Notes: generated from the letters alone by a model not told the origin. Positions 2-20,000 are shown, counted from the stretch's first letter. The stretch: 20,000 nt of DNA from an uncultured virus (IMG/VR IMGVR_UViG_3300024255_001771) (IMGVR_UViG_3300024255_001771:58932-78931), one strand, 5' to 3'. Numbers and translations are program-made.

Positions 2-733
2 TATAGATTTGTGTCTCAGCGCAAAGAACATGCAACAGTAGCAAGTTATCCTAAAGTTAAAGATTATGATATTGTGTTTATAAGTTATAATGAACCTAAT
101 GCTGATGAAAACTGGGAAAACTTGAAAGAACGTTTTCCAAGAGCGCAACGTATACACGGAGTCAAAGGCATACATCAAGCACACATTGAAGCAGCTAAAT
201 TGTGTACTACTGACTTATTTTTTGTTGTAGATGGCGATGCTACGATAGTAGATAGTTTTGATTTCCGTTATAAAGGACAAGAAGGCTTTGTACATGTATG
301 GCGTAGTATAAATCCTATAAACGATCTAGTATACGGATACGGCGGCGTAAAGCTATTGCCAAGAGAGCTTACGCTTAACATGGATACTAGCAAGCCTGAT
401 ATGACAACTAGTATATCAGAAAAGTTTAAAGCAATGCCAGATATTAGTTGTATAACTAATTTTAATACAGATCCGTTTAGCACTTGGAAAGGTGCATTTA
501 GAGAATGTTGTAAACTTTCTAGTAAAGTAATTGATAGGCAAAAGAATGAAGAAACAGATGACCGTTTACTTACCTGGACGACAGTAGGGAAAGAGCGCCC
601 TTACGGCGAATGGGCTATCAAAGGTGCTAGACAAGGATCTGCTTACGGAACAGCAAGCCAAGGCGATAGTGAAGCACTTAAAAAAATAAATGACTTTGAT
701 TGGCTTCAGGAGAAGTTTAATGAAAACACATGA
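2..733 (+). CDS. GT-A fold glycosyltransferase-like protein (5' truncated by the window edge)
   Basis: The frame is open from position 2 (YRFVSQRK...), so the true start is probably upstream. N-terminal 'YDIVFISYNE' beta-strand and 'FFVVDGDA' DxD motif after a hydrophobic strand, as in GT2/GT-A enzymes. Confidence 0.6.
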   Translation, partial: YRFVSQRKEHATVASYPKVKDYDIVFISYNEPNADENWENLKERFPRAQRIHGVKGIHQAHIEAAKLCTTDLFFVVDGDATIVDSFDFRYKGQEGFVHVWRSINPINDLVYGYGGVKLLPRELTLNMDTSKPDMTTSISEKFKAMPDISCITNFNTDPFSTWKGAFRECCKLSSKVIDRQKNEETDDRLLTWTTVGKERPYGEWAIKGARQGSAYGTASQGDSEALKKINDFDWLQEKFNENT

Positions 734-1634
734 GTTATTAGATAGGTTTGAACTACTGTATCCTACTAACAGCAAATTAGCAGATCTACGTAGAGCATAT
801 ATTGACCAAGACATTAGCAGTATATTTAGACTAATGCCTAATCATGTATCTGGAGACATTGAAGAACTTCGTAAAGCAGTGCTAGAACAAAATTTGCATA
901 GTATCTTTAGATTGTGTAACAACGATGATTTAAGGAAACTTGTACTAGAAGACAATACATGGAAACTTTGGCCCATACTAGATTGTTACGCTGACACTCA
1001 ATTTATAGCAGCATTCAAAAGTTTTTTTGTTAATGAAACAAATATTTGGGACGATTGTTTTTCTAGAGGACAACTAGAAAGTAAATTATGGTTAGTAAAA
1101 GAACTTAGAAAACTTAAGGTTGACTTAGGCACAGTATTCTTGTGTGCAGGTTGGTACGCTACACTAGCTACAATGTTATTTGAGAGTAACATTAAAGTAG
1201 ATAAAGTTAGATCTTTCGACATTGATCCTAGCTGTGTAGATATTGCTGAAGTATTTAACAAGCCTTGGTTTGTAGATCAATGGCGATTTAAAAGTATTAC
1301 ACAAGATATAATGGATATTGATTATAATGAGCATACATGGCAGTATTGGAGTAACGCAAACAATAGAATGAGCTATCCAATTACAGATAGTCCTAATACT
1401 ATTATAAACACAAGTTGCGAACACATAGAAAACTTTTCAGAATGGTATGATCTAATACCAAACGATAAATTAGTAGTTCTACAAAGTAATAATTATTATG
1501 AAGTAGAAGAACATGTTAATTGTGTTAAAGACATCAAAGAGTTTGGCAACATGGCACGTATGACAGGTCCGTTATATGCAGGTGAACTAGAACTGCCCAA
1601 GTACAAGAGGTTTATGTTAATTGGATATAAATGA
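720..1634 (+). CDS. Class I SAM-dependent methyltransferase-like protein with N-terminal helical repeats
   Basis: ATG at 720 overlaps the previous stop. Motif I-like 'VFLCAGWYATLA', acidic motif II 'RSFDIDP' and 'IINTSCEHI'. Three imperfect repeats of D/E-LR-K/R-xx-L/I-E/D-x-N/D in the N-terminus. Confidence 0.65.
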   Translation: MKTHELLDRFELLYPTNSKLADLRRAYIDQDISSIFRLMPNHVSGDIEELRKAVLEQNLHSIFRLCNNDDLRKLVLEDNTWKLWPILDCYADTQFIAAFKSFFVNETNIWDDCFSRGQLESKLWLVKELRKLKVDLGTVFLCAGWYATLATMLFESNIKVDKVRSFDIDPSCVDIAEVFNKPWFVDQWRFKSITQDIMDIDYNEHTWQYWSNANNRMSYPITDSPNTIINTSCEHIENFSEWYDLIPNDKLVVLQSNNYYEVEEHVNCVKDIKEFGNMARMTGPLYAGELELPKYKRFMLIGYK

Positions 1635-1845
1635 ACTAAGTGTAAGAGAACTGCAAACAGAGAGTGCTAGGGCATTGAGTACAATGCAAGCAACCAATAA
1701 TAATATTTGGCAGTTCAATAAAGTAGCACATCATAACAGTCAAAACTGGTACAAGGCTGTAATCGAATGGTATGTTGAACAGTACGGCAACCTGCCTAGT
1801 AAAGTTGGTCCTGGTAAAGATGTAAAGTTGATAATGGATGTATAG
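1621..1845 (+). CDS. Small hypothetical protein (74 aa, TTG start, Trp/Tyr/Asn-rich)
   Basis: Fills the gap between two genes and overlaps both (14 and 8 nt). An in-frame TAA at 1618-1620 makes TTG 1621 the earliest possible start. Confidence 0.7.
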   Translation: MDINELSVRELQTESARALSTMQATNNNIWQFNKVAHHNSQNWYKAVIEWYVEQYGNLPSKVGPGKDVKLIMDV

Positions 1846-2905
1846 ATACGAAGATATAAAAACAATACACCTTGAGGTTACACAAAACTGCCAAGCCAAT
1901 TGTCCAATGTGTGACCGTAATATGAACGGCGAAGGATTAAATCCGCACATTAATTTAGATGAACTATCATTAGACGATTGCAAAAATATTTTTACAAAAG
2001 AATTTATTGCACAATTAGATACAATGTATATGTGTGGCAACTTGGGAGATCCTATCGTTGCTAAAGACACATTAGAAATATTTCAATATTTTAGATTACA
2101 CAATCCTAATATGTGGCTAAGTATGAATACAAACGCAGGGGCAAAAAATGAAAAGTGGTGGAGACAGCTGGCTGAAGTTTTTGGAAGGATGGGCTCCGTC
2201 ATATTTAGTGTGGACGGTTTGCGTGACACTAATCATTTATATCGCCAAGGAGTTGTATGGGATAACGTAGAACGCAACATGCGAGCATTTATTGACGCAG
2301 GCGGCAGGGCACGTTGGGACTTTCTAATTTTTGAACACAATCAGCATCAAGTAGATGAAGCGGAAGCACTTGCTAACGAATGGGGCTGCGAAAAGTTTAT
2401 GAAGAAAAAGACTGGACGCTTTATTACACAAGATTCAAAAAAGAAAGAATCTCATCAAGCAGTTGATAAAAAAGGTAATAAAACTTCTAAACTTAAAAAA
2501 CCAGATGCAAAATATCAAAACAAAGCAATTAGCAAGCAAGAAGTAATTATTAACAAGTACGGCACTATGGACGCTTACTATGATGCAGCCCCTATCATTT
2601 GTAAAGTAAAGAAAGATAATAGCTTATTCATAACAGCAGAGGGCCTAGCGTTACCTTGTTGTTGGACTGCTGGCCGAATGTATAAATGGTGGCACAAAGA
2701 TCCTAAAGTAGAACAAATATGGGACTTTATACCTGATATAAGCGCCTTACAAGCACGGAACGGTTTAGAAGCAGTGTTTGCTACGGGAATATTTGAACGC
2801 ATACAAGACAGCTGGACAAAGTCTAGTTGCGGTGACGGCAAGTTAAAAGTGTGTGCAATGAAATGCGGCGCAGAGTTTGATCCGTTTGCAGAACAATTTA
2901 AATAA
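1838..2905 (+). CDS. Radical SAM protein with C-terminal SPASM/twitch-like Cys domain (family A, copy 1)
   Basis: CxxxCxxC 'CQANCPMC'; 'CGNLGDP'; 'FSVDG..DTNHLYR'; C-terminal 'C...GLALPCC...CAMKC'. Confidence 0.9.
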   Translation: MYRYEDIKTIHLEVTQNCQANCPMCDRNMNGEGLNPHINLDELSLDDCKNIFTKEFIAQLDTMYMCGNLGDPIVAKDTLEIFQYFRLHNPNMWLSMNTNAGAKNEKWWRQLAEVFGRMGSVIFSVDGLRDTNHLYRQGVVWDNVERNMRAFIDAGGRARWDFLIFEHNQHQVDEAEALANEWGCEKFMKKKTGRFITQDSKKKESHQAVDKKGNKTSKLKKPDAKYQNKAISKQEVIINKYGTMDAYYDAAPIICKVKKDNSLFITAEGLALPCCWTAGRMYKWWHKDPKVEQIWDFIPDISALQARNGLEAVFATGIFERIQDSWTKSSCGDGKLKVCAMKCGAEFDPFAEQFK

Positions 2906-3506
2906 TAATTTTAGTCTGAGGTTTCTTTTTAAATTGACCATGGTCAAACTTGTTATTGTCTATATTACTAAGTAATCCTTCAACAGGATATCCTACACCT
3001 AATGCTAATCCTATATCTTTGCCTTTGATTTTGTAATTCCTTAATGCTCTTGCTACCTTATTTTTCTTATCTTTTCCACTTTCTAACGGATAAAAACATT
3101 TACAAAATCCGGTTCGTAGACCAATATTATTTGCAGCCAATGCCATAGCACCAGCAGCCAAACCAATTTCTGTCATAGTTGTGTTATTGCCTTGACGCTT
3201 TTCTTGACTACGTTTTTTTTCGTCTCTGTCTTGTTTTTCAAAAAATGTAAATACCACCGGAGCTAACATTTGTGGATTCTTCACTTGTCTACCGTGCCAT
3301 CCTTTATTAACAGCACTTGCTGTAAGATATTCAATCATTGTCCTATCAGTAAACGCTACTATTTGAAAGGATGATAAGTTTTGTTTAGTAGGCATTGTAT
3401 AACCTACATCAAATAGCCAATCAATTATTTCTTGATCTACAGATTTATCAAGATCCCAATTTCTTTGGCAATGTTGTGTTTGTTCTATTAAGTCTAACCA
3501 ATTCAT
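2898..3506 (-). CDS. Nitroreductase-family (FMN-binding) protein
   Basis: Likely start MNWLDLIEQ at 3506. 'QHCQRNWD' corresponds to the RxSxRxF motif and 'PTKQN' to PSxxN. Also 'IGLAAGAMALAANNIGLRTGF' and 'LGVGYP', the standard nitroreductase signatures. Confidence 0.8.
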   Translation of the reverse strand: MNWLDLIEQTQHCQRNWDLDKSVDQEIIDWLFDVGYTMPTKQNLSSFQIVAFTDRTMIEYLTASAVNKGWHGRQVKNPQMLAPVVFTFFEKQDRDEKKRSQEKRQGNNTTMTEIGLAAGAMALAANNIGLRTGFCKCFYPLESGKDKKNKVARALRNYKIKGKDIGLALGVGYPVEGLLSNIDNNKFDHGQFKKKPQTKIII

Positions 3507-3511
3507 ACAAA

Positions 3512-3518
3512 TATTTAT
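3512..3518 (-). promoter_or_regulatory. T4-late-like promoter box ATAAATA for the nitroreductase gene
   Basis: TATTTAT on + reads ATAAATA on -, 5 nt upstream of the ATG at 3506. Similar to the T4 late consensus TATAAATA. Confidence 0.55.
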
Positions 3519-3528
3519 CTTAGAACAA

Positions 3529-3535
3529 ATAAGTA
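3529..3535 (+). promoter_or_regulatory. T4-late-like promoter box variant ATAAGTA for the radical SAM run starting at 3541
   Basis: One mismatch to ATAAATA, 5 nt upstream of the ATG at 3541, mirroring the box on the opposite strand. Confidence 0.45.
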
Positions 3536-3540
3536 CAGTT

Positions 3541-4590
3541 ATGCTTACAATTAATGATGTTAAAAAAATTGAACTAGAAATTACCAGCGATTGCAATGCA
3601 GCCTGTCCAGGCTGTGCTAGAACAATTCATAATGATTTGCTGAGAATAAACAGTTTTTCACTGCAAGATCTGCAGAGAATATTTCCTACTACTAATCATA
3701 TAGCAGATAAAGAATTTAAATTTTGTGGTGTATTAGGCGATCCAGCAATACATCCTCAGCTTGCTGATATGTTAGAATACGTATTACAACATGGCGGGAA
3801 AGCAAACATTAGTACAAACGGTGCTGTAGGTACAGCAGACATGTGGCGTAGAATAGGCAAACTAGCAAACCAGTATCATCAAAAGTTTTTCATGCAATGG
3901 TGTATTGATGGTCATAAAGAAACAAATCATATTTATAGAGTAAACACTAAATGGAGTGTTCTTGAAAGAAATATAAATGCATTTTGTGAAACAGTTGGAG
4001 AATATACTCACAAAGCACAATGGGTCTTTATTGTTTTTGATCATAACGAATACGAACTTGATATAGCAAAACAACATGCTAAACGTTTAGGATTTAAATT
4101 TGCTACTCGCACAGGAATGCGTAACAGTTATCATCAATGGATATCTCATATTGGTAAGAAAAACAATAAAGAAACAAAAGTAATTACTACTACAGGCAAG
4201 AACGAACATAAACGTAAAGATGAAGTTTACAAGTTAGATAAACTAATTGCTAATAACGAAGTTGACAATAGTATCATTAATACAATTTCATGTAAGTATG
4301 TACACGAAGGTGAAATGTTTATTAATGCACAACAACAAATGTGGCCGTGTTGTTTTTTATGGGATAGCGCATTTAAAGATATAGACAATATGTCAGAAAA
4401 ACTTAGTGATTATCCTGACAGCTGGAATAGTTTAAAAACACAATCTATAGAAGAAGTTATGCAACAACCTTACTATATGAATGTACTTGAGGAAAGCTGG
4501 AACCCTAAACACAATAAACATATAGAGCGTTGTATAAGAACATGCGCATACAATAAAGCATATCAAAACGAAATAGTAGAACAAAAATGA
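3541..4590 (+). CDS. Radical SAM protein with C-terminal Cys domain (family A, copy 2)
   Basis: 'CNAACPGC', 'CGVLGDP', 'STNG', 'IDG..ETNHIYR', 'WPCC...CIRTC'. Confidence 0.9.
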   Translation: MLTINDVKKIELEITSDCNAACPGCARTIHNDLLRINSFSLQDLQRIFPTTNHIADKEFKFCGVLGDPAIHPQLADMLEYVLQHGGKANISTNGAVGTADMWRRIGKLANQYHQKFFMQWCIDGHKETNHIYRVNTKWSVLERNINAFCETVGEYTHKAQWVFIVFDHNEYELDIAKQHAKRLGFKFATRTGMRNSYHQWISHIGKKNNKETKVITTTGKNEHKRKDEVYKLDKLIANNEVDNSIINTISCKYVHEGEMFINAQQQMWPCCFLWDSAFKDIDNMSEKLSDYPDSWNSLKTQSIEEVMQQPYYMNVLEESWNPKHNKHIERCIRTCAYNKAYQNEIVEQK

Positions 4591-5588
4591 GTTGGAAAAT
4601 TTTAGTTAAAGATCAAGTTAAGGTTCAAATTGAAATGTCTAACTATTGTAATGCTGCTTGTCCGGCTTGTGCAAGGTCAAAGGTTCGTAAGAATATCAAA
4701 GATGAGATGTATCCTATTACATTAAATGATACGTACATAAGTTTAGAACAATTTAAAAGTTGGTTTGATAAAGATACTTGGTCAAGTTTAACACATATAC
4801 ATATGTGCGGTAACTACGACGAGGCAACAACTAATCCTGATCTAATTGAAATTGTAAAGTGGATTCTATCTAGTGATGATCTATTTCCTATGAAACCTAA
4901 GATTTCTATTGCTACTAACGGCGGTACACGCACTAAAGAATTTTGGAAAGAGCTAGGACAAATGTCTGCCGAATCCGGCAATCGCCTTAATGTAACATGG
5001 GGCCTTGATGGGTTTGAAGACACTAATCATCTTTATAGGATAAATGTTGTTTGGAATAGAGTACAAGAAAATTATAGAACATACATAGCAAACGGCGGAA
5101 ACGCAGTTTGGCAATTTATATATTTTGCACACAATGAACATCAAGCACATCTAGTTGAAGATTATGCAACTAGTGAAGGATTTTCTAAAGTAAAGTTTAT
5201 AGGAAGTGCTAGACCTAATATTGGCAAAACAGAACACAACATTGATAAGAAAGCAACACCAAAGATAATTTCATCAATAATAGCACCAAAATGTCTTACT
5301 GGAAGTATAGACGATCATGGTGTATATATTACACACCACGGTTATGTTCTTCCTTGCTGCTGGTGGGGAACTAGGTGGGGATTTGAAAATCTAAAAGATT
5401 ATAGTAAACTTTATAGTCCTGACCAACACAGGTTAAACGGATCAAATAGTATACAAGATATCTACGACAGTGACTGGTATAGTAACTTATATACTGCTAT
5501 CATGAACGAAAAGTTTTCGAAATGCACAGAAAATTGTAAACAAAATAAAGTTGCAACACAACGATTTGAGAAATTAAATGACAAATAA
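4587..5588 (+). CDS. Radical SAM protein with C-terminal Cys domain (family A, copy 3)
   Basis: 'CNAACPAC', 'CGNYDEA', 'ATNGG', 'LDG..DTNHLYR', 'LPCC...CTENC'. ATGA overlap with the previous gene. Confidence 0.9.
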   Translation: MSWKILVKDQVKVQIEMSNYCNAACPACARSKVRKNIKDEMYPITLNDTYISLEQFKSWFDKDTWSSLTHIHMCGNYDEATTNPDLIEIVKWILSSDDLFPMKPKISIATNGGTRTKEFWKELGQMSAESGNRLNVTWGLDGFEDTNHLYRINVVWNRVQENYRTYIANGGNAVWQFIYFAHNEHQAHLVEDYATSEGFSKVKFIGSARPNIGKTEHNIDKKATPKIISSIIAPKCLTGSIDDHGVYITHHGYVLPCCWWGTRWGFENLKDYSKLYSPDQHRLNGSNSIQDIYDSDWYSNLYTAIMNEKFSKCTENCKQNKVATQRFEKLNDK

Positions 5589-6984
5589 ATTACCATCAGA
5601 AACATTTTGCCTACTACCGTGGGTACATCTAAGCACAAGACCAGACGGCAGTATGCGAGTATGCTGTACAGCAAACGCTAGTTCAGTTGGCCCAACTAAT
5701 GATAAAGAGCATGGCGGCCAAGTAGGCATACTAAAAGATGACGAAGGACGTCCTAACAATTTAAATGTTAGTGATTTTCAAAGTGCATGGAATAGCGACT
5801 ACATGAAGAATGTACGCAAACAAATGCTTGCAGGAGAGAAACCTCCCAGTTGTTTAAAGTGTTATAAAGAAGAAGCAGCTGGACATCGTAGTAAGCGTAT
5901 GTGGGAAACACACTACTGGAGTCAGCGTGTTGATGTTGATAAGGTATTACAAGAAACAAACGAAGACGGTAGTGTTCCTCCTAACTTGGCATACATTGAT
6001 TTACGCTTTGGTACTAAGTGTCAGTTAGCATGTGTTATGTGCAGTCCTCATGATTCATCAGGTTGGATCAAAGACTGGAAAGCAATCTTTCCTGCTGTTG
6101 AAAACAAAAGTCTCAAAGAAATTATGCAGTGGGATAACAAAGGCAGCACTAACGGTAGTAGTTATAATTGGCATAAACAGAATCCTACATTTTGGAAACA
6201 GTTCTATGAACAAATGCCTAGTATGCAGCAAATTTATTTTGCAGGCGGCGAAAGTCTTATTATTGAAGAACACTATGAAATACTTGAACACGCAATCAAA
6301 ATGGGCTACGCTAAAGACTTAGAACTACGTTATAATTCAAACGGAGTTGAATGGCGCGATGATTTATTTGACCTATGGAAAGAATTTAAATTAGTACGTT
6401 TCCATTATAGTATAGACAGCATTAAAGAAATGAATGACTACATTCGTTATCCTAGCAATTGGGAAAACCAAGTAAACACGTTTCATAGATTAGATAATGA
6501 AACAAGTGATAATGTTGAAGTAACTATTGCGTGTGCAGTGCAAGCACTAAACGTATACTACTTGCCAGACTTTATACAATGGAAGTTGGAGCAGAAGTTT
6601 AAGAAAATTAACATGTGGCCATTTGGTGCAGGCGGTATTAGTCAGCACTTTGTATACTGGCCAGCACATTTAAATGTAAAGAGCTTGCCTGCAGACTTTA
6701 AAGAAAAATGTAGAGCAAAATACGAAGCATGGTATCCATGGTGGGAAGAAAACTGGGAACTTGGAGTTCCAAGTTGGCATAAAGGTAAGATTACTAAAGA
6801 AGACTTTATGCAAGCTGAATATGGTATCAAAAGATTAAATGGCATCCTTAACTTTATGGAAAGTGAAGATTGGAGCCAACGACTTCCAGAGATGAAAGAA
6901 TTCCTTAGTAGATGTGACACACAGCGTGGTATAACATTTGAAGAAACATTTCCTGAGATGAAAGATATATTTGATGGACTTTGA
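5578..6984 (+). CDS. Radical SAM protein with N-terminal twitch/SPASM-like domain (family B, copy 1)
   Basis: N-terminal 'CLLPWVHL..RPDGSMRVCC...CLKC', then 'CQLACVMC', 'FAGGES', 'YNSNG', 'SIDS...NDYIRYP'. Confidence 0.9.
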   Translation: MTNKLPSETFCLLPWVHLSTRPDGSMRVCCTANASSVGPTNDKEHGGQVGILKDDEGRPNNLNVSDFQSAWNSDYMKNVRKQMLAGEKPPSCLKCYKEEAAGHRSKRMWETHYWSQRVDVDKVLQETNEDGSVPPNLAYIDLRFGTKCQLACVMCSPHDSSGWIKDWKAIFPAVENKSLKEIMQWDNKGSTNGSSYNWHKQNPTFWKQFYEQMPSMQQIYFAGGESLIIEEHYEILEHAIKMGYAKDLELRYNSNGVEWRDDLFDLWKEFKLVRFHYSIDSIKEMNDYIRYPSNWENQVNTFHRLDNETSDNVEVTIACAVQALNVYYLPDFIQWKLEQKFKKINMWPFGAGGISQHFVYWPAHLNVKSLPADFKEKCRAKYEAWYPWWEENWELGVPSWHKGKITKEDFMQAEYGIKRLNGILNFMESEDWSQRLPEMKEFLSRCDTQRGITFEETFPEMKDIFDGL

Positions 6985-10852: not shown

Positions 10853-10858
10853 GTAGTT

Positions 10859-11981: not shown

Positions 11982-11989
11982 CACATACT

Positions 11990-12052: not shown

Positions 12053-12072
12053 ATACTACTCTTATAGGACGC

Positions 12073-13929
12073 ATGATGAAAAAAGTTTATTTCACACAAA
12101 TTAATAATGTAATAGCCGAAGCAACATTCTTGCCACTAAGCGTAGCATATGTATGGGAATACTGCAACGCTAATGTAGAAGGATGGGAGCTTGGCGGAAT
12201 ATTGTTTGAGCGTGAAACAGTAGCCGAATATTTAAAACAAATAACCGACCCTGATGTATTTGCCATTAGTACATATGTATGGAATTGGGATATAAGTAGA
12301 GAGCTTGCTCGTGCAGTTAAACTCCGTTGGCCCAACTGTTTAATTGTAATGGGCGGCCCACAAGTTCCTGCCAAGAAACAATGGCTACAAGATAATCGAG
12401 ATATATGTGATTTAATTGTCACATATGCCGGCGAACGTGCGTTTGCTGAGTTACTTAATGGTAATTATACAGCACCTGGCATATTGAGTGTTGATAGTTA
12501 TAGTCCTCCTAAACCTGATAAAATAGTAGACGACATTCCTAGTCCGTATCTTAGTGGACTAATGGACTCTCTTATGAAACCTGGAAAACAGTACAGTGCT
12601 ATAATTGAAACTAATAGAGGTTGTCCTTATGCTTGTACCTTCTGTGATCAAGAAGCAATATATTATAATAAAATAGCAAAGTTTAATTATGATAGAGTTA
12701 TTGCTGAAATTGATTGGGTGTCTGATCATAAGATCGACTTCCTATATTTTGCAGATAGTAATGTAGGAATATTTGACAGAGACATTGACTTTATCAAATA
12801 TGTTGCTAAGTGCAAAAATGAAAAAGGATTTCCAAGACAAATTGATTATAGTACAGCAAAACAGCAACCTGAACGAATCGTCGAACTAGGCCGTATACTT
12901 AATCAAGAAGCAAAGATTAAACGTGGAGTGACTATTGCACTACAGAGTATGAACCCAGCTACACTAAAAGCAATTAAGCGTATTAATATTGCTAATACTA
13001 AATTAGAACAAATGGTAAGTGCGTATAATAAAGCCGGCGTTGATAACTACTGCGAATTAATAGTCGGCTTGCCAGAAGAAACATTAGATACTTGGATTGC
13101 CGGAATTGGAAAAATACTTGAACTAGGAAGCGATCACGCTCTTACTGTCCATCCATTAAGTATTGTTCCTAATACTCCATTTAGTGATCCAGAATACAAA
13201 GACAAGTACGGATTGCAATATACTGCATCTCCTGCACCTGCAGGCGGCAACGTTTATCCAGAAGACAGTAAGGGCGAAGTAGACTTTGTATGCCATACTA
13301 GTAATACGTTTACTACAGACGGATACATTGATATGTATTTCTTTGCAAAGGGCATCATTATTCCGCATCACTATCACGGTGTGAGTCAAGTAATTGCTAC
13401 TTACTTGTTCCGCGAACATAACATTTCCTTAATAGATTATTACAAATGTTTGTTTGAGTGGAGTAAGAATAGTTCAGGTATTTTAAATCAAGAGTACGTT
13501 ACTCATACAACTAGTTTGCGTGAAAGTTTATTTGAAATGAAAACTTGGGGACGTTCTATAGAAGGTTCAGACGATTTTCACTTCCAAGATAATGGAGCAA
13601 CTGCTGCATTTTTGTATTCTAATATTGATGAAATTTACAATGAACTTATTTACTTTGTAAAACTGAAATACGGTATTGACATTTCTGAAGTATCAGTGTA
13701 TAATAAGCATATACTCGATATTTATGGTAAGACGGCTTACTCTATGACATTTACAAAAAATTGGGACTCTTGGTTCTTTAACAATACTATATTAGCAAAT
13801 ATGGAAACTGTTGTAGAAACAACTCCAACAAAATATAAAGACAGAGGCGACCACGCTAAACATTTATTCTGGTATGGTCGAAAAAGCAAAAGATGCTTTT
13901 TACAAACAACAAAAAAGGAGTTTGCATGA
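12073..13929 (+). CDS. Cobalamin-binding radical SAM protein (class B methyltransferase-like), copy 1
   Basis: N-terminal B12-binding domain ('LPLSVAYV', 'ISTYVWNW', 'IVMGGPQV'), then 'PSPYLSG', 'ETNRGCPYACTFC', 'FADSN', 'ELIVGLPEET'. AGGA at 12066-12069 fits the second ATG at 12076 better. Confidence 0.9.
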   Translation: MMKKVYFTQINNVIAEATFLPLSVAYVWEYCNANVEGWELGGILFERETVAEYLKQITDPDVFAISTYVWNWDISRELARAVKLRWPNCLIVMGGPQVPAKKQWLQDNRDICDLIVTYAGERAFAELLNGNYTAPGILSVDSYSPPKPDKIVDDIPSPYLSGLMDSLMKPGKQYSAIIETNRGCPYACTFCDQEAIYYNKIAKFNYDRVIAEIDWVSDHKIDFLYFADSNVGIFDRDIDFIKYVAKCKNEKGFPRQIDYSTAKQQPERIVELGRILNQEAKIKRGVTIALQSMNPATLKAIKRINIANTKLEQMVSAYNKAGVDNYCELIVGLPEETLDTWIAGIGKILELGSDHALTVHPLSIVPNTPFSDPEYKDKYGLQYTASPAPAGGNVYPEDSKGEVDFVCHTSNTFTTDGYIDMYFFAKGIIIPHHYHGVSQVIATYLFREHNISLIDYYKCLFEWSKNSSGILNQEYVTHTTSLRESLFEMKTWGRSIEGSDDFHFQDNGATAAFLYSNIDEIYNELIYFVKLKYGIDISEVSVYNKHILDIYGKTAYSMTFTKNWDSWFFNNTILANMETVVETTPTKYKDRGDHAKHLFWYGRKSKRCFLQTTKKEFA

Positions 13930-14489
13930 TACGTGTGGGAGATACTATACCTAATGTTTCTAGTATGCATAAAGTTAAACATAACAATGAGTGGGCAGAC
14001 ACCCGATCGTTATTTGCTGGCAAGAGGATACTTTTACTCGGATTGCCAGGTGCGTTTCTTGTAGAATATGCTGCTTCTCAACTCCGGTCGTATGAATTTT
14101 TATATGACAAGTTTATGAACGAAGTTGACGAAATATGGTACACGTCAACTGACGATTGTTTTATACAGAACGCCTGGAACAAATTTCAAGGTATTAAACA
14201 TATACAAAATTTACCTGATCCAGATGCTACTTGGTCCGATGCAATAGGCATGACCGAAGATATGACCAAAGAAGGATTAAGCAGTAAACGAAGCCATCGA
14301 TATGCTATGGTCCTAGATAATCTTGTTGTTAAAACTATTAAATATGAAGACTTTAGTCATAATCCAATGACGTGTTTCCAAGTAACTGATGCAGACTCTA
14401 TGATGCAATACTTTGAAATTATAAAGACAAATTATGAAAGATGGGATGATAATGTTGGAAGAGAAAAAAACAGCTCAGTACTGTCATGA
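13926..14489 (+). CDS. Peroxiredoxin (Prx5/Redoxin)-like protein lacking the peroxidatic Cys
   Basis: ATG at 13926 (ATGA overlap). 'VGDTIP', 'LFAGKRILLLGLPGAF', 'DDCFIQNAW', 'LPDPDA', 'RSHRYAMVLDN' match Prx5, but PGAFTPxC is replaced by PGAFLVEY. Confidence 0.8.
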   Translation: MIRVGDTIPNVSSMHKVKHNNEWADTRSLFAGKRILLLGLPGAFLVEYAASQLRSYEFLYDKFMNEVDEIWYTSTDDCFIQNAWNKFQGIKHIQNLPDPDATWSDAIGMTEDMTKEGLSSKRSHRYAMVLDNLVVKTIKYEDFSHNPMTCFQVTDADSMMQYFEIIKTNYERWDDNVGREKNSSVLS

Positions 14490-15069
14490 ACTAACTAACC
14501 TTTGGTTTGATAGACAGTATCTAAGTAATCACTTAGCAAGTATAGAAGAGGATGAATGGTATGTTTTCGATTGTGGCAAAACTAGGTGGACAGTTCAAGA
14601 AAGTTTTGATCCACGTCTTGAGTGTAAAAACTACTCCTGGTCAGACTTTCACGAAGAGCTCGCATTATTATTTAATATACCGATCATGCCCGATACTATG
14701 TTATATACCAGCACACCTGTCGGAGGAACCCCTCCCCACCAAGACCGAAACAGAAGAGCAGTCTTAAACTTTCCTGTAAATGGAAAATTTGGACTGGATA
14801 GTCCACAAACATTCTTTGAAACATTTGATCGTGATACGTTAAAATATACAATGCCATATGAGAAATCTAAGCTAACAGATGAATTAGCGCCTTGGCTGTT
14901 TAAAGGACAACAAATACACGGAGTAACTAATGAATCAGATGAAGGTAGGACAATTATTACCACTTGCTGGCGACATAACTCGTATGAAGATATTAAAGCT
15001 AAAATTGAAGATGGCACTTTGATAAATTGGGAACAGAACAAAAAAAATAAAAAGGTTAAGTTTATATGA
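14452..15069 (+). CDS. 2OG-Fe(II) oxygenase / cupin-like protein
   Basis: HxD 'PPHQD', 'LNFPV', distal 'IHGV' followed by Arg. The start is uncertain (14434, 14446 or 14452). Confidence 0.65.
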   Translation: MLEEKKTAQYCHELTNLWFDRQYLSNHLASIEEDEWYVFDCGKTRWTVQESFDPRLECKNYSWSDFHEELALLFNIPIMPDTMLYTSTPVGGTPPHQDRNRRAVLNFPVNGKFGLDSPQTFFETFDRDTLKYTMPYEKSKLTDELAPWLFKGQQIHGVTNESDEGRTIITTCWRHNSYEDIKAKIEDGTLINWEQNKKNKKVKFI

Positions 15070-15704
15070 GTAGCAAACACGCATTATCTAGATTGCACAC
15101 TATGGGCGACTGGCTCGAGATGCAGAAGTTTAACTCTGGCAAACTGTTAGATGATATTAATCAGTACGCAGATGAGTGGAAACCGTATAACGTTAAAAAG
15201 CCAAACAATCGCTGGGGACTTAGTATTACTAGTCTTGATGGTAAACTTAGTGGCATTCCGGACTTAGATAGTCTGTCAGAATATAATAACCGGCACGGCA
15301 CTACACTTACAAATCATGATATTAACACATATACAAATGTGTACAGTACTAGTCTAGAACTTCAAAAGATTATAGAGCCTTGGAAGCCATGGTTAGGTCG
15401 GTGTCATTATCTTAAACTAAACAGTGGCGGCTTCTTCCCTGAACATTATGATATAAACAAACTAGACTACACATACGAAGATGTTAGACTGGTTGGCTTT
15501 GTTAATCGCAACAGTAAAGACACTATGAAATTTATATACGAAGACACTGTTATGAATGTTAAAGAAGGTAGTTTGTATTATTTTAATGCAAGCAAACGAC
15601 ATAGCGTGTTTAGTATGTCAGATGATTGTATCATGCTTGTATTTTGTTTAAAGTTTGATGCAAAGTTATTTGAAACAATGATAGATCAATATAGGTTGTC
15701 TTAA
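15066..15704 (+). CDS. 2OG-Fe(II) oxygenase (Asp/Asn beta-hydroxylase-like)
   Basis: 'LKLNSGGFFPEHYD' HxD motif and 'GSLYYFNASKRHSV' distal His. Confidence 0.7.
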   Translation: MSSKHALSRLHTMGDWLEMQKFNSGKLLDDINQYADEWKPYNVKKPNNRWGLSITSLDGKLSGIPDLDSLSEYNNRHGTTLTNHDINTYTNVYSTSLELQKIIEPWKPWLGRCHYLKLNSGGFFPEHYDINKLDYTYEDVRLVGFVNRNSKDTMKFIYEDTVMNVKEGSLYYFNASKRHSVFSMSDDCIMLVFCLKFDAKLFETMIDQYRLS

Positions 15705-16240
15705 TGGACTGGTATCATAGAAAACTAAAATTACAATATAATCCTAGTGTGTTTAATGAAATAATTGAATATGCACAGCATACTACTTGGAAACAAGGAT
15801 ATGATCAGAACGGACTAGTTTGGAATGTAGAAGAACTTCCATTAAGTGTAGAAGACTTTCCTATATTAAACGAATTATATAACGGCCTTAATGCAGAATT
15901 TAAACGTCCTAGTTTCTTTTTAAGTAGTGTAAAGCCTGGAGGATTAGTTAATCATATTGATCATCGTAAATGGGGAAATTTTGGAATTCCGTTACTAGGG
16001 GACTTTAGTAACAGTCCTCAATACTACTATGACCAATTTAATCATCCAGTTGAGCAATTTATATTAGATACACCGACTATTTTTTATACTCGCATGTTAC
16101 ATGCTGTGCCACGTAAATTAGAAGACACTACACCCCGTTGGGTATTGATGATGGATTTATTTGACTGGACAGATAACTTATTTAAAAAAATTGACAATAA
16201 TACTATTTGGACAGACACAGAGAATTTTAAACATGCGTAA
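15704..16240 (+). CDS. 2OG-Fe(II) oxygenase / cupin-like protein
   Basis: 'VKPGGLVNHID' HxD motif, 'LHAV', 'RWVL'. TAATG overlap with the previous gene. Confidence 0.7.
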   Translation: MDWYHRKLKLQYNPSVFNEIIEYAQHTTWKQGYDQNGLVWNVEELPLSVEDFPILNELYNGLNAEFKRPSFFLSSVKPGGLVNHIDHRKWGNFGIPLLGDFSNSPQYYYDQFNHPVEQFILDTPTIFYTRMLHAVPRKLEDTTPRWVLMMDLFDWTDNLFKKIDNNTIWTDTENFKHA

Positions 16241-17888
16241 TATATACTTTTTACAGTTGCCACTAACTGCTCACACTGCTTCTTTACCGCAAGCAGTTGG
16301 AACTATTTGGAGTTACTGTAATCAATTTGAAGAAGTGTCGTCTAAATATAACTTAGCTGGCGTTTGGTGGAAGGATCCTATTGATATTGTAGATCCGTAT
16401 ATTATTGCTGCCAGTTGTTATATGTGGAACTGGCAAGAAACTTATGCAATTATTAAAGATGCTAAGTCTAAATACCCGAACTGTAAAGTTATTGTCGGCG
16501 GCCCAGATCCTAAATACACTTCGCAGTGGTGTATTGACCATCCCGAAGTTGATGCAGTAATTGCATACTACGGCGAAGAAACTTTGCGTAATGTATTAAC
16601 TACTGATACGTTTGATTTACCGGGCATTGTAACTAAGGATTTCAATAATGCATTGAATGCAGTATATGCAGATCCTAAAATGATACCGAGTCCGTACTTA
16701 AATGGATTTTTTGATAAGTTATTAGAAGGTAACACTACTAAGAATATTAGAGCAATATTTGAAGGTAATAGAGGCTGCCCGTATAGCTGTAGTTTTTGTG
16801 ACATTGGATCTAAACAGTATCAAAAAATACAAATGTTTGACACTGACCGATGCTTGCAGGAACTTGACTGGATATGCGAAAACAATATTAATATTATCGA
16901 CGTTGCTGACAGTAATTTTGGAATCTTTCCTAGAGACGAACTTATAGTAGACTACATTGTAGAACAAAAACAAAACGGAAGATTTAATGGGAGTTTCATG
17001 CCCACTTGGGCTAAAACACACGGCGAGCAAATTATTAAACTTGCTAAAAAACTACAAACCAGCGGAGTAGATAAAATCTTTGGATTTAGTTTACAGAGCA
17101 CTAATCTAGAAACTCTTAAGAATGTTAAGCGTAAAAATGCATATGACATTAAAGGATTTATTCCTATTCTTGAAGATATGCAACTAGAAAATTTATCATC
17201 ATATACTGAATTAATATTTCCTATGCCAGGCGACACTAAAGAAAGTTTTAAAGCAGGAGTGCATGAGCTATTAGATATGCCAGTATCGTTTGAAATGATA
17301 CAAATTAACAGTTTGAGTAGGTTGTCTAATACTGAGTTTAATACTGGATTTCTAGATATGGAATGGGCCAATATTAAAGGAACTGCAAAACCTTATGATA
17401 ACGGTGTTACTGATGAAATATGTGTTTCAACAAGCTCAATAGATCGAGAAAGTGTATTTGAATCTTTTTTCTACGCAAGGAATTTTATTATACCAATGTA
17501 CTGGTATGGAATTACAACATATCTCGCAGACTATTTACATAAAAATAATATAAACAGAAGTGCATTTCATAATGAGTTATACGATCAAATGTTTTCTGAG
17601 AAATTGTTTGCTGATCATAAAGCAGAAGTAAGAGATCACTATTTTAATTCTATTGACAATAATGATCATATCGGGTATTATATTAGTAACTGTAATTATA
17701 CTGATACTGCATACTCGCATTTATTTTATGTACAGAATAATATTTTTGATTATTTAAAAGAAAGATATCCAGAGCACAGTGATATCATTTCTGCTAACCA
17801 AAAAGACTTTAAAAGCATAACTGACTTATCTAGTTGGATGACTGAAATACACATCAAAGGACGATTTAGTAAATCATGGAAAAATTAA
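16233..17888 (+). CDS. Cobalamin-binding radical SAM protein (class B-like), copy 2
   Basis: ATG at 16233 (MRNIYFLQ) aligns with MKKVYFTQ of copy 1. 'SCYMWNW', 'VIVGGP', 'PSPYLNG', 'EGNRGCPYSCSFC', 'VADSNFG'. Confidence 0.9.
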   Translation: MRNIYFLQLPLTAHTASLPQAVGTIWSYCNQFEEVSSKYNLAGVWWKDPIDIVDPYIIAASCYMWNWQETYAIIKDAKSKYPNCKVIVGGPDPKYTSQWCIDHPEVDAVIAYYGEETLRNVLTTDTFDLPGIVTKDFNNALNAVYADPKMIPSPYLNGFFDKLLEGNTTKNIRAIFEGNRGCPYSCSFCDIGSKQYQKIQMFDTDRCLQELDWICENNINIIDVADSNFGIFPRDELIVDYIVEQKQNGRFNGSFMPTWAKTHGEQIIKLAKKLQTSGVDKIFGFSLQSTNLETLKNVKRKNAYDIKGFIPILEDMQLENLSSYTELIFPMPGDTKESFKAGVHELLDMPVSFEMIQINSLSRLSNTEFNTGFLDMEWANIKGTAKPYDNGVTDEICVSTSSIDRESVFESFFYARNFIIPMYWYGITTYLADYLHKNNINRSAFHNELYDQMFSEKLFADHKAEVRDHYFNSIDNNDHIGYYISNCNYTDTAYSHLFYVQNNIFDYLKERYPEHSDIISANQKDFKSITDLSSWMTEIHIKGRFSKSWKN

Positions 17889-18637
17889 AAATGGATAAAC
17901 TTACAATTAATAGCGACTGGTATATTGATTTAGATGAAATTTTAAATATTGGTAGCTGTCCAGCAAGTTTAGATGATGGACTAATTAATAATTTTGATAT
18001 GATCCGTCACTGTTGCAACATTAATACCAGTGACTTGTCCGGTAATTCAATTGCAGATGCGTTAGATATTAAGGCAGCCACCAATAAAGATATATTTGCT
18101 GCTGAACTGACAAATGCATTACGCTCACCATATCATGTCATGAAACTGACAACTGGAGGGCATGACGGGTATGTTTATGATTCAATCAAAACTCCAGCAG
18201 CAGTATGGGATTCCATTAAATGGAAACCCGGGCTATCAGAAGATTGGCAACCTTTTAAGGAATGGATTGCTCAACTGCCCATAACAAAAGTCGGGCATGT
18301 GGCAGTGTTTATCAATAGGCCCGGAGTAATCCCATGGTATCACGTTGATAGCGGCCAAGATCACGATATCGCCAACTGGCGCCCTGTGCCTCATAGAGAA
18401 GAGTTTATCTGGATTAACTTTGACAATCACAAAACATTTTATATTCTAGATAACAATAACACCCCGGTAAAAGTCCAATCAAGAAGTGCATTTTTCAATA
18501 CAAACAATTATCATGGTAGCCATGAAGCAACACACAGTTGGAGTTATAGCGTAAGAATTGAATGCATATTCTCAGATCATTTTAGAAAACAAATAAGTAT
18601 AGATCATATAGAAGGTTATTATTATGAAGATGTATGA
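17876..18637 (+). CDS. 2OG-Fe(II) oxygenase / cupin-like protein
   Basis: 'PGVIPWYHVD' HxD motif, 'FFNTNNYHGS', 'SVRI'. Alternative ATG at 17891. Confidence 0.65.
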   Translation: MEKLKMDKLTINSDWYIDLDEILNIGSCPASLDDGLINNFDMIRHCCNINTSDLSGNSIADALDIKAATNKDIFAAELTNALRSPYHVMKLTTGGHDGYVYDSIKTPAAVWDSIKWKPGLSEDWQPFKEWIAQLPITKVGHVAVFINRPGVIPWYHVDSGQDHDIANWRPVPHREEFIWINFDNHKTFYILDNNNTPVKVQSRSAFFNTNNYHGSHEATHSWSYSVRIECIFSDHFRKQISIDHIEGYYYEDV

Positions 18638-19721
18638 ATTTGAAGACTTCAAAGCCGAGTTTATAGAATGGTCATTTGATGCCGAAAAAATTCAAACAAA
18701 CAATCTTCCGCTGTGTCCATATGCCAAACATACTAGGATTACAAATAATGTAGAATTCTTTGATGGTAGAGAAAATTTAAAAGAGTGCCTTTTAAAATAC
18801 ACTGGAGAGAAAGATATGGGTGTAATTTGGTTAGGTAACAACATAGATGTCGAGGACGTTAATATTGTTTTAACAGAACAACAAAAAATAAATGCAAATA
18901 TTATTTATTTTCTAACTGAAAAAAACGTCGTTGTCCAAAGATATAATTTTGGATTTATCAGTAAATCGTTTACTAATACTATTATTATGCACCGGTACGA
19001 CGATTATTTAATCAAGCAGCGATCTCTTTTTGAAAAAAAATATTATGACCAATATCCAGATAATAGTACAATAAAACAAAGAGTTAATCAGATTTACAAT
19101 AATATTTATCCAGTCAAAAAACAAGATAATCAAGTTATAGGTACTGAATCACAATATAAAATTTTTGATTATTATTTTGATGAGCCCGGAAGTGTTTTAG
19201 ACATTGGAGGCAATGCAGGAAATTTATTAACAAGTAAAAATAAAAAAATAGAAAAGTATACTTGTTTAGATGTATCAAAAGATGCAGCTAAATTGGGGAA
19301 AAGGCTGTATCCCAATTCAAATTTCTATCATTATAATATGTATAATGAATATTATAACAAAGCAGGAAATAGAACGGAAATATTTCCTAATATAGAAATA
19401 CACGATTATGTTTTTATAAACAGTGTATTTACAAGTTGCGATCTTGATACTATTATTAATATATTATCAGAGTCTATCAAACTCGCCAAAAAGAAAATAG
19501 TGTTTAGTGTATTCGACTATGATAACCAATATCTTAAAGATAAATTTAAAATAGAAGAGTTAAAAAAAGAAACGAATATATCATATTCGGCAAAATCTAT
19601 CAAACTTCATAATATCAACTTGTTGAAAGATTACATAGAAAATGCATTTGGTATTAATGTGTTAGTCGACAACCCGTGTCCGATAGATAACAATTTTACA
19701 ATATTTTTAATAGAACGGTAA
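18624..19721 (+). CDS. Fusion: N-terminal 'CPYA' domain (DUF1415-like) plus C-terminal class I SAM-dependent methyltransferase
   Basis: 'LPLCPYAK' near the N-terminus. C-terminal 'SVLDIGGNAGNL', 'YTCLDVSKDA', 'DYVFINSVFT'. Confidence 0.7.
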   Translation: MKMYEFEDFKAEFIEWSFDAEKIQTNNLPLCPYAKHTRITNNVEFFDGRENLKECLLKYTGEKDMGVIWLGNNIDVEDVNIVLTEQQKINANIIYFLTEKNVVVQRYNFGFISKSFTNTIIMHRYDDYLIKQRSLFEKKYYDQYPDNSTIKQRVNQIYNNIYPVKKQDNQVIGTESQYKIFDYYFDEPGSVLDIGGNAGNLLTSKNKKIEKYTCLDVSKDAAKLGKRLYPNSNFYHYNMYNEYYNKAGNRTEIFPNIEIHDYVFINSVFTSCDLDTIINILSESIKLAKKKIVFSVFDYDNQYLKDKFKIEELKKETNISYSAKSIKLHNINLLKDYIENAFGINVLVDNPCPIDNNFTIFLIER

Positions 19722-19727
19722 AGAAAA

Positions 19728-20000
19728 ATGTATACAAATCCTTTAAATAAATTAATATGGAATAAGGTCGAAGAAATGTTCGGCTGGAACATTGCTCCAG
19801 AATCTATGATCCACCAGTTGCCGTTTACAAAAGAGTTTATGACAGCATGTGAACAAGAATTTTCAATGCAAGTTAGAGATACACATCATCCAATTCATCT
19901 CGGTCAAATTGATCAATGGTATGGAAAAACTATGGGCGACTTTGTAAAAGAAATTGACAAGCAATATCAACACAACTACTTCGTAGGTGAAAACGGTACA
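19728..20000 (+). CDS. Hypothetical protein, 3' truncated; N-terminus resembles an acyl carrier protein without the DSL serine
   Basis: My translation: MYTNPLNKLIWNKVEEMFGWNIAPESMIHQLPFTKEFMTACEQEFSMQVRDTHHPIHLGQIDQWYGKTMGDFVKEIDKQYQHNYFVGENGT, open to the window end. Not in the supplied ORF track. Confidence 0.7.
   Translation, partial: MYTNPLNKLIWNKVEEMFGWNIAPESMIHQLPFTKEFMTACEQEFSMQVRDTHHPIHLGQIDQWYGKTMGDFVKEIDKQYQHNYFVGENGT

Follow-up and report, generated by a model that had tools for sequence, protein, structure and literature searches.

In pelagimyophages, a hypervariable 'host recognition cluster' situated after the giant VrlC gene holds tail fibres, glycosyltransferases, UDP-glucose dehydrogenase and cassettes of radical S-adenosylmethionine (radical SAM, rSAM) enzymes, and remodelling of the host O-chain against co-infection was proposed for it (Zaragoza-Solas et al. 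2020, PMC7029224). For TARA_ERS488813_N000010, a marine T4-like environmental genome of 183 kb, the accessible text mentions 12 radical SAM genes in connection with Fe-S cluster supply, and gives neither cluster anatomy nor function (Nishimura et al. 2017, PMC5332604). In the Ralstonia jumbo phage RsoM2USA (MG752970), open reading frames (ORFs) 354-347 are located downstream of virion proteins that mass spectrometry has confirmed, and the word 'radical' never occurs in the part of that paper that was available (PMC8504454). The subject of this analysis is an rSAM-rich island of an uncultured virus, read in a 20,000-nucleotide (nt) stretch of IMG/VR contig IMGVR_UViG_3300024255_001771 (58932-78931; this whole stretch is called the window, and positions are those of the window unless marked as contig positions).

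Compared by description, the island resembles the pelagimyophage cluster in being a large hypervariable island in the structural region after a giant protein, with close phages differing by cassettes, and it differs in its rSAM numbers, a conserved trio of rSAMs and a bacterial counterpart, none of which is described in the accessible text on that cluster. TARA_ERS488813_N000010, also likened by description, belongs to a marine phage of T4 type and is exceptionally rich in rSAMs. An initial annotation, made from the sequence alone, had proposed an undescribed assembly line of tailoring enzymes; the adjective was too strong, since rSAM cassettes and the T4-like genome with 12 rSAMs had already been mentioned in passing. 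No description of the rSAM trio, its jumbo-phage scale, the RsoM2USA module or the Bdellovibrionota counterpart was found in the literature, of which subscription journals and supplements may hold more.

Two further groups of known enzymes offer partial likenesses. The capsid glycosyltransferase A64R of PBCV-1 (PDB 2p6w) is a virus-own enzyme of the glycosyltransferase A (GT-A) fold that decorates the virion, and was matched by a model from the island with a Foldseek expect value (E) of 8e-4; mycobacteriophages likewise carry their own GT-A glycosyltransferases for virion proteins. To our knowledge, neither the chlorovirus nor the mycobacteriophage glycosylation machinery has a radical SAM component. 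Among antibiotic sugar-tailoring enzymes, BlsE, BtrN, AprD4 and GenK/GenD1 are twitch/SPASM or B12-binding rSAMs that act on sugars or nucleoside sugars, with sugar-acting radical functions known for BtrN and GenK, and BlsE, AprD4 and HpnR-type models were returned as weak hits of the island's proteins. Those pathways use one or two such enzymes, whereas 8-21 were counted per contig here, and the scores lie far below cut-offs.

A conserved scaffold with hypervariable filling

The window, which forms the final 20 kb of a contig of 78.9 kb (GC content 34.6%), holds 22 densely packed ORFs, only one of them on the minus strand. The island begins near 41.5 kb of the contig, directly after the fibre genes, and continues past the contig end; its length is at least 37 kb. 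The CxxxCxxC motif was found in 10 of the 22 window ORFs and 15 of the 59 contig ORFs, compared with a mean of 0.08 (maximum 1) in residue-shuffled window proteins, and PF04055 was returned (E≤0.01) for the same ten among the 21 window ORFs scanned, which places them in the radical SAM superfamily and bears out the ten rSAMs initially counted. Seven of these score above the PF04055 cut-off of 29.5 bits, and the three below it (19.7, 27.8 and 28.5 bits) have a paralogue that passes it and are matched by phage rSAM PHROGs. With five further rSAMs on the contig upstream of the window, the total of 15 comprises six A-family members with an N-terminal twitch domain, four B-family members with a C-terminal Cys-rich or SPASM domain, two C-family members with a MoaA/viperin-like core, two B12-binding proteins and one singleton. 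NF033640 (cut-off 170 bits) was passed by the A-family proteins at 5578-6984 (425.2 bits) and 8133-9209 (191.2 bits); the four upstream members were assigned to this family through paralogy, the NCBIfam scan having covered the window proteins.

One member each of the A, B and C families serves as an anchor: rSAM-A (5578-6984), rSAM-B (1838-2905) and rSAM-C (10859-11974). IMG/VR was scanned with rSAM-A, the best 80 of 189 relatives (81-100% identity) were kept, and the 59 contig proteins were compared by tblastn with 84 viral loci; since many of these loci end at contig ends, all locus counts are lower bounds. At ≥50% identity, rSAM-A was found in 84/84 loci (81-100% identity), rSAM-B in 76, a protein of 74 amino acids (aa) in 64 (median identity 77%) and rSAM-C in 46 (median 88%). 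The glycosyltransferase-like and methyltransferase-like genes had matches in 71. The order of the scaffold is small proteins, a GT-A-fold protein, an N-twitch rSAM, a second GT-A-like domain, a class I methyltransferase, the 74-aa protein, rSAM-B, rSAM-A and rSAM-C. Variable cassettes of rSAM paralogues, PP-loop ATPases and a nitroreductase (weak match in 17/84 loci) lie within it, and a rare block from 12073 onward, with two B12-rSAM methylases, a redoxin, four HxD..H proteins and methyltransferases, was seen in four loci, two of them belonging to one and the same virus. In five longer relatives the rSAM matches numbered 8, 12, 16, 18 and 21. The island is a conserved scaffold with hypervariable filling, and its genes co-occur across IMG/VR loci as a system rather than as unrelated cofactor genes, in line with the initial annotation.

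Within the families, the protein at 3541-4590 is 27% identical to rSAM-B, and that at 6971-8143 is 24% identical to rSAM-C. Invariant Cys residues were found among the homologues of rSAM-B, and rSAM-C has a mean column identity of 85% over 15 viral homologues. The two B12-rSAMs are 29% identical to each other, carry both PF02310 and PF04055 above cut-off, and scored 187 and 168 bits against NF033712 (KedN5, cut-off 700 bits); as these scores fall far below the cut-off, the proteins are placed as class B-type without a named family. Against the viperin model NF038283 and PADLOC pVip (cut-off 180), the best scores were 42.8 bits (the protein at 6971-8143) and 42.9 bits, covering the rSAM core alone, which leaves the proteins outside the viperins. 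A defence-system reading was rejected, since PADLOC gave mere generic rSAM-core likeness to pVip together with a candidate B12-rSAM family.

The DxD protein that enters the window at its start (545 aa) and a 308-aa protein at contig 44203-45129 are paralogues with 34% identity. The 308-aa paralogue, modelled with an alignment (predicted local distance difference test, pLDDT, 83.7), has a GT-A fold, and its model matched ThuS, SunS, RmlT, TarS and PBCV-1 A64R by Foldseek (E 3e-5 to 8e-4), and B4GALNT1 (Z 10.8, root-mean-square deviation 3.0, 136 residues aligned) and ThuS (Z 9.4) by VIA; 165 chains reached Z≥8, and those listed are GT-A transferases or related nucleotidyltransferases. The DxD motif (D65, D67) is invariant in the family. 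Fold and motif of the paralogue uphold the glycosyltransferase-like DxD protein first proposed, and the GT-A-like proteins may be glycosyltransferases, though the fold would also fit a nucleotidyltransferase. The window protein itself had no Pfam GT2 sequence match, and nothing meaningful was returned by a PDB sequence-profile search. In metagenomes the family numbers at least 8,000 proteins, many of them two-domain and about 535 aa long, with PF13641 or PF00535 in 3 of the 120 listed relatives. In some relatives the glycosyltransferase-like gene is fused to the methyltransferase gene downstream, which argues for a functional tie between them; ORFs of 1,058-1,222 aa that join a glycosyltransferase-like, a second glycosyltransferase-like and a methyltransferase-like domain were seen at L043:2823-6206, L036:3913-7089 and L035:1288-4956.

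Of the methyltransferases named in the initial annotation, that at 690-1634 (314 aa) stands by its fold: its model (pLDDT 88.4) is of class I, and Foldseek gave at least 500 matches at E≤0.001, of which those listed are methyltransferases or related SAM-dependent enzymes, among them PsoF, two methyltransferases that act on sugars (RebM and AtmM) and NodS, an N-methyltransferase of chitooligosaccharides. The residues A153/G154/W155 and D177/D179 do not vary and would correspond to motifs I (glycine-rich) and II (acidic), and neither a Pfam nor a PDB sequence match was found for this protein. The ORF that runs off the window at 19728 is also upheld, its full form in the identical virus (L085:17656-18573, 305 aa) scoring 34.6 bits for PF13489 (cut-off 27), and the ORF at 18624-19721 has weak evidence only.

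Beyond the scaffold and the window genes, the island holds a UDP-glucose dehydrogenase (PF03721, PF00984; phrog_9148, 2e-97). Past the window end, the identical virus continues with the rest of the 305-aa methyltransferase, an unknown protein, a PP-loop/QueC-like protein, a second unknown protein, a 16th rSAM and a TctA fragment. No transporters or regulators were found in the window, as initially stated; the TctA-family tripartite tricarboxylate transporter fragment (PF01970, 96.5 bits; L085:21368-21853) lies about 3.4 kb past its end, and a membrane transporter is unusual phage cargo.

Joints that skip intervening cassettes were observed in metagenome contigs of runs X17 and X1 at 2081-9696, 2700-9208, 2904-5005 and 2161-5007, in each of which paralogous rSAM-B genes are joined. 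With short sides of 24-47 letters at 90% likeness, the joints give no more than a hint of co-occurring variants from recombination between paralogues. A further family of three paralogues, at contig 54577-55896, matched only unannotated viral clusters in the Atlas; a GT10 fucosyltransferase identity for it was set aside, the Atlas lead of 0.79 being too weak to use.

Counterparts in RsoM2USA and Bdellovibrionota

In RsoM2USA, ORFs 354-347 (L163, record 215949-222310) are syntenic with the start of the island at 27-46% identity, comprising small proteins (34-38%), a GT-A-like protein (45%), the N-twitch rSAM (46%), the second GT-A-like domain (42%) and a methyltransferase-like protein (27%). 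The gene order is the same, and this module too lies downstream of a giant virion protein and fibre genes. The annotation calls all eight ORFs hypothetical. Over the 24.9 kb examined, RsoM2USA has one rSAM match, compared with 15 in the present contig, and was found without the rSAM-B/C trio, the 74-aa protein, the PP-loop protein and the B12 block.

A scan of one genome per prokaryotic species gave 323 relatives of rSAM-A, of which 73 loci were kept, and 63 of these 73 are labelled as Bdellovibrionota lineages in their record titles. In 20 Bdellovibrionota loci, rSAM-B and rSAM-A were each found in 20/20, rSAM-C in 17/20 and a second A paralogue in 14/20, with identities of about 60% for rSAM-A, 59-71% for rSAM-C and 42-48% for rSAM-B. 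These loci hold 4-10 rSAMs per 20-kb locus, PP-loop proteins and, in many cases, glycosyltransferase-like and methyltransferase-like genes, and they lie in chromosomes or in long contigs of up to about 3 Mb. They differ from the phage island in running on both strands and in being flanked by cellular genes (GT2, PMT_2, tRNA synthetase), and gp23 was not found in the three Bdellovibrionota genomes tested. The distribution is patchy, with rSAM-C orthologues in 15 of 301 sampled Bdellovibrionota genomes. No publications on Bdellovibrionota rSAM clusters were found.

Neighbouring genes in a 2.9-Mb chromosome include two GT2 genes, PMT_2 (GT-C) and a short-chain dehydrogenase/reductase. A Bdellovibrio isolate has a DegT aminotransferase and a polysaccharide lyase in this position, together with two genes each for UDP-glucose dehydrogenase and epimerase/dehydratase. 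In Poseidonocella, the neighbours are FdtA and an NDP-hexose 2,3-dehydratase, and also a polyketide synthase (PKS); in locus L090, a GT2 gene directly follows rSAM-C. One Bdellovibrionia contig (L101:6799-8004) encodes a 401-aa protein with a thrombospondin type 3 repeat, located between a methyltransferase-like gene and rSAM paralogues, which could be a surface-protein acceptor.

Several genome loci outside the Bdellovibrionota hold the 74-aa protein, have a GC content of 33-36% and, in one case, accompany gp23, and they look like phage contigs mis-binned into bacterial genomes. Contigs L089, L106, L111, L119 and L135, in metagenome-assembled genomes (MAGs) labelled Arcticimaribacter, Gammaproteobacteria, Neisseriaceae, Crocinitomicaceae and Rickettsiales, carry genes of this phage lineage with 57-89% identity to rSAM-A; the 74-aa protein is present in four of the five, and the MAG of L106 has gp23 too, on other contigs.

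Possible products of the island

We favour, at about even confidence, a reading in which the product of the island is a sugar or short glycan that is heavily tailored and then transferred. It is the best supported because a phage UDP-glucose dehydrogenase accompanies two to three GT-A domains of the invariant scaffold, because the methyltransferase has fold neighbours of sugar type and the B family a weak likeness to the glucuronate decarboxylase BlsE (second-best PDB match of the rSAM-B profile, 7.5e-7; NCBIfam 4e-5), and because the bacterial homologues sit among sugar and glycan genes. The initial annotation had left the substrate open, and this cellular context would point to sugars or glycans rather than nucleic acids. 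In such a pathway, UDP-glucose dehydrogenase would supply a uronic acid, and the twitch/SPASM rSAMs might perform radical chemistry on a sugar or nucleotide sugar (oxidation, epimerisation, deoxygenation, decarboxylation or C-C formation). By analogy with known enzymes, the PP-loop ATPases may activate a carboxylate, e.g. for amidation, the B12-rSAMs may C-methylate the product, the HxD..H proteins may hydroxylate it, and the methyltransferases may add O- or N-methyl groups, after which the GT-A enzymes would attach the product. The two leading candidates for the acceptor are the phage's own fibres or virion surface and the envelope glycan of the infected cell, and cassette swapping between near-identical phages would diversify the product.

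The PP-loop and HxD..H proteins enter this scheme through their motifs. In the PP-loop protein, SGGxDS and C196/C207/C210/C213 are invariant among 21 homologues, and a PDB profile search returned TtuA/NcsA-type thiolases at 2e-4 and a weak likeness to NAD synthetase. Its score against QueC PF06508 was 18.7 bits (cut-off 22), over the C-terminal 55 residues alone, so that of the QueC-like PP-loop/Zn ATPase of the initial annotation there remain the ATPase motif and the four Cys, and the protein is classed as a PP-loop ATPase whose end resembles QueC, outside the QueC family. The second PP-loop/QueC-like protein, past the window end in the identical virus, passes the same cut-off at 27.8 bits. 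For the four HxD..H proteins, the triad proposed at the outset is invariant among the homologues of each; no Pfam match was obtained for proteins 1-4 at E≤0.01, one had Cupin_2 at E≤5 with 13.8 bits (cut-off 27.2), and alignment between the four families by hhalign gave probabilities of 0.6-3%, which are not significant, so homology among the four is not claimed. For protein 2, the nearest Atlas cluster, a viral one, scored 0.98 and has PF05118 in 25% of its members; for protein 4, no PDB profile match was found, and its 20 relatives were found without Pfam annotation. By motif, the four are putative Fe(II)/2-oxoglutarate-type oxygenases.

Several results weigh against a sugar product. Twitch/SPASM rSAMs act on peptides more often, the rSAMs here have weak matches to the peptide maturases SkfB, YhhB and PapB, the two best Foldseek matches of the glycosyltransferase-like model, ThuS and SunS, glycosylate peptides, and the Atlas lead of HxD..H protein 2 points to protein hydroxylases. 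In the NCBIfam scan the rSAMs fell far below the cut-off of every characterised family, NF033640, the sole family passed by window rSAMs, being itself uncharacterised, and PDB profile searches gave no close solved structure for rSAM-A, rSAM-B or rSAM-C (for rSAM-C, one match at E 0.009). UDP-glucose dehydrogenase was the only clear nucleotide-sugar enzyme found in the phage island, and Pfam, at E≤0.01 for the window and E≤0.001 for the part upstream of it, recognised no flippase, polymerase or lipid-carrier enzyme, many ORFs being without a family match. Sugar genes were found in 23 of the 73 genome loci with ten queries, and neighbourhood is not function. The island is matched in parts by RNA-library contigs (in run X20, 14 of 18 pieces at ≥99% identity), with DNA carry-over possible; transcription of the island is not shown by them, and stretches lacking RNA cover carry no meaning.

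Since peptide-maturase hits, ThuS/SunS and the hydroxylase lead coincide, a protein acceptor or direct protein modification remains a serious rival, although we consider it unlikely that the rSAMs, B12-rSAMs, HxD..H proteins and methyltransferases directly modify amino acids in the fibre proteins of the virion or in a ribosomal peptide. They would then install cross-links, epimerisations, C-methyl and hydroxyl groups, perhaps in a ribosomally synthesised and post-translationally modified peptide of the proteusin or sactipeptide type, with the 74-aa protein as substrate or chaperone and the GT-A enzymes adding sugars. SPASM/twitch rSAMs are typically peptide maturases, and weak FxsB and DynA matches add to those listed above; the conserved 74-aa ORF overlaps the start of rSAM-B and the island adjoins fibre genes. 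The combination of two B12-rSAMs, oxygenase-like proteins and methyltransferases presumably recalls the polytheonamide cluster. Set against this, Pfam and NCBIfam scans of the window found no RRE/PqqD domain and no precursor family, and its genes overlap or abut except for gaps of 37 nt and 98 nt, which leave no room for hidden precursor peptides. The 74-aa protein is evenly conserved along its length, with no variable core, and was found neither in the 20 Bdellovibrionota loci, with the same trio, nor in RsoM2USA; a complex prediction with rSAM-B scored 0.00, which speaks neither for nor against binding. The cellular homologues, moreover, sit among sugar genes and not among peptide or protease/exporter genes.

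Manufacture of a diffusible small molecule or cofactor during infection, nucleoside- or aminoglycoside-like or a redox cofactor, attached to neither virion nor envelope, is quite improbable. The gene set does resemble secondary metabolism, with B12-rSAM matches of the KedN5, PhpK and HpnR types, the BlsE likeness, PP-loop ATPases, methyltransferases and oxygenase-like proteins, and the TctA-family fragment after the island of the identical virus and the PKS beside the Poseidonocella homologue could be read in the same sense; but the invariant scaffold includes two to three GT-A-like domains, which relatives have fused to the methyltransferase, RsoM2USA and the marine phages alike keep the genes among those for structural proteins and fibres, and Pfam scans of the phage island found no non-ribosomal peptide synthetase, PKS or cyclase. 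It is very improbable that the GT-A, PP-loop and rSAM proteins build a modified or sugar-decorated base in phage DNA or tRNA against restriction. T4-type phages do glycosylate DNA, weak similarities to QueC, QueE, MoaA and the viperin core were seen, and the PP-loop paralogue past the window passes the QueC cut-off, yet the viperin, MoaA and QueE scores lie far below cut-off, PF00303 (thymidylate-synthase/hydroxymethylase) was found in 0/5 related contigs, which are incomplete genomes, DpdA/TGT, FolE and QueD were not seen in Pfam scans of the contig, and the same core stands beside GT2, PMT_2 and sugar genes in bacterial chromosomes.

A sugar or glycan product, as favoured above, could be part of something wider. 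It is conceivable, though distinctly unlikely, that jumbo phages and predatory Bdellovibrionota share an unrecognised rSAM-based system for hypermodification of glycans or glycoproteins, which would decorate the structures that contact prey, with cassette swapping diversifying them. The shared system would consist of a core of three rSAMs with GT-A transferases and a methyltransferase, its sugars might carry C-C, C-methyl or deoxy features that radical chemistry installs and that have not been seen in known glycans, and rapid swapping of cassettes would generate diversity for recognition or evasion.

The lineage is an abundant, global marine one, with 8-21 rSAMs per contig examined that are exchanged as cassettes. 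If the proposed function is true, radical SAM chemistry is used at large scale in viral glycobiology, these phages hold a large reservoir of uncharacterised sugar- or protein-modifying radical enzymes, and a mechanism is suggested by which giant phages diversify their own surface or that of the host. Experiments become feasible through the trio's presence in Bdellovibrionota and a minimal module in a cultured phage, which the earlier passing mentions did not offer.

The phage, its promoters and the features of the window

The large phage first proposed was confirmed by the contig upstream of the window, which encodes a gp55-like late sigma factor, Mre11/Rad50-like nuclease subunits, baseplate hub and wedge proteins, a giant virion protein and three tail-fibre proteins that are paralogues and carry a collar domain. 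Over the window genes that served as queries, a 138-kb IMG/VR contig matches at 100% identity, and a gp23-type major capsid gene was found in five of five related contigs, this one among them, so that two of the markers suggested as a check, capsid and gp55-like sigma, were located. The capsid protein of the 138-kb contig shares 67-71% identity with its counterparts in Vibrio phage 2.275.O, Sinorhizobium phage Phosso, Pectobacterium phage CBB, Cronobacter phage GAP32 and Pseudomonas phage PA5oct, and the Rad50-like protein is 49% identical to that of PA5oct. Because of these identities, the phage is placed as a jumbo myovirus of the GAP32/CBB/PA5oct kind, whose genomes are of roughly 290-470 kb; CheckV rated contigs of 138-236 kb as 36-66% complete, in agreement with a jumbo genome size. 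A pelagimyophage identity was ruled out by the capsid protein and Rad50.

Near-identical sequence, taken as at least half of the sampled words, was found in 16 seawater or marine runs dated 2011-2024, and any part of the sequence in 20 rows from 17 studies; since those 16 runs carry near-identical sequence, the phage lineage is marine and widespread. No match to cultured phages was obtained by megablast with the window, rSAM-A and rSAM-C had distant matches only (≤25% identity) in cultured phages, and tRNA genes were not present.

A single copy of the exact T4 late box TATAAATA is present in the window, on its minus strand, compared with 4.4 expected, and the plus strand of the contig has none. 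The T4-late-like boxes cited in the initial annotation were therefore not recovered, and a T4-type late transcription unit defined by the exact box was rejected, its count being below expectation. A shorter TAAATA-type box stands in five of nine intergenic gaps of the contig, including the gap at 11975 before the B12 block, at the start of which ATAAATAC matches the consensus of a late-promoter-like box. Scans for sigma-70-like promoters and terminator-like elements were at chance level. A near-identical AT-rich element, TATATACTATTATAATA, was observed at contig 5364-5449, in the divergent gap before the baseplate operon, and at contig 41502-41552, just before the first island gene, and may be a shared promoter type.

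The features of the window are collected in the table. The nitroreductase of the initial annotation was confirmed by PF00881 above cut-off, and a redoxin (PF08534) that it had omitted was added.

Table. Features of the 20,000-nt window, with strand and the evidence for each.
Feature	Position	Strand	Evidence
C-terminal GT-A-like (DxD) domain of 545-aa protein (contig 58027-59664)	2..733 (ORF 11-733)	+	Paralogy, DxD
Class I SAM-dependent methyltransferase fold with N-terminal helical domain, conserved anchor	690..1634	+	Model, Foldseek
Conserved 74-aa protein, both ends overlapping neighbour genes	1621..1845	+	64/84 viral loci
rSAM-B, anchor; radical SAM with C-terminal Cys-rich auxiliary-cluster domain	1838..2905	+	PF04055 34.6 bits
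Nitroreductase-family flavoprotein	2898..3596	-	PF00881 32 bits (cut-off 23.5)
rSAM-B paralogue, variable cassette	3541..4590	+	CxxxCxxC; PF04055 19.7 bits (below cut-off); phrog_21308 9e-18
rSAM-B paralogue, variable cassette	4587..5588	+	CxxxCxxC; PF04055 27.8 bits; paralogy with B members
rSAM-A, anchor; radical SAM with N-terminal twitch domain	5578..6984	+	NF033640 425 bits (cut-off 170)
rSAM of C type, core like MoaA/viperin, variable	6971..8143	+	PF04055 43.1 bits
rSAM-A paralogue, N-terminal twitch family	8133..9209	+	NF033640 191 bits (cut-off 170); PF04055 50.1 bits
rSAM-B paralogue with SPASM domain	9209..10150	+	PF13186 24.4 bits (above cut-off); PF04055 28.5 bits; phrog_21308 2e-34
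PP-loop ATPase, C-terminal four-Cys site, QueC-like end	10147..10821	+	SGGxDS, invariant Cys
rSAM-C, most conserved anchor	10859..11974	+	PF04055 52.1 bits
Sole sizeable intergenic gap, beginning with ATAAATAC, ahead of the rare B12 block	11975..12072	.	Consensus match
B12-binding radical SAM no. 1, class B methylase type	12073..13929	+	PF02310 39.9 bits, PF04055 39 bits
Redoxin/peroxiredoxin-like, likely start ATG 13926	13893..14489	+	PF08534 50.4 bits; phrog_2281 4e-29
HxD..H protein 1, putative Fe/2-oxoglutarate-type oxygenase by motif	14434..15069	+	H102, D104, H162 invariant, 3 homologues
HxD..H protein 2, lead to Asp/Asn beta-hydroxylase-like cupins	15066..15704	+	H127, D129, H179 invariant, 8 homologues
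HxD..H protein 3	15704..16240	+	H84, D86, H133 invariant, 3 homologues
B12-binding radical SAM no. 2, likely start ATG 16233	16161..17888	+	PF02310 44.9 bits, PF04055 43.2 bits
HxD..H protein 4	17876..18637	+	H156, D158, H213, H216 invariant, 19 homologues
Methyltransferase-like, weak evidence	18624..19721	+	PF08242 19.3 bits (cut-off 30)
N-terminus of 305-aa SAM methyltransferase, running off the window	19728..20000	+	Full ORF L085:17656-18573

Two further observations concern the contig upstream of the island. A single ORF of 5,294 aa spans contig G000:C1:17101-32985 (L002:101-15985), matches phrog_10938 'virion structural protein' and has a weak CBM_5_12 match, and is probably the counterpart of the giant VrlC-like fibre or baseplate protein in related phages. 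On the minus strand at G000:C1:330-779, close to the genes for recombination nucleases, lies a homing endonuclease of the SegE GIY-YIG type (PF19835, 1e-35).

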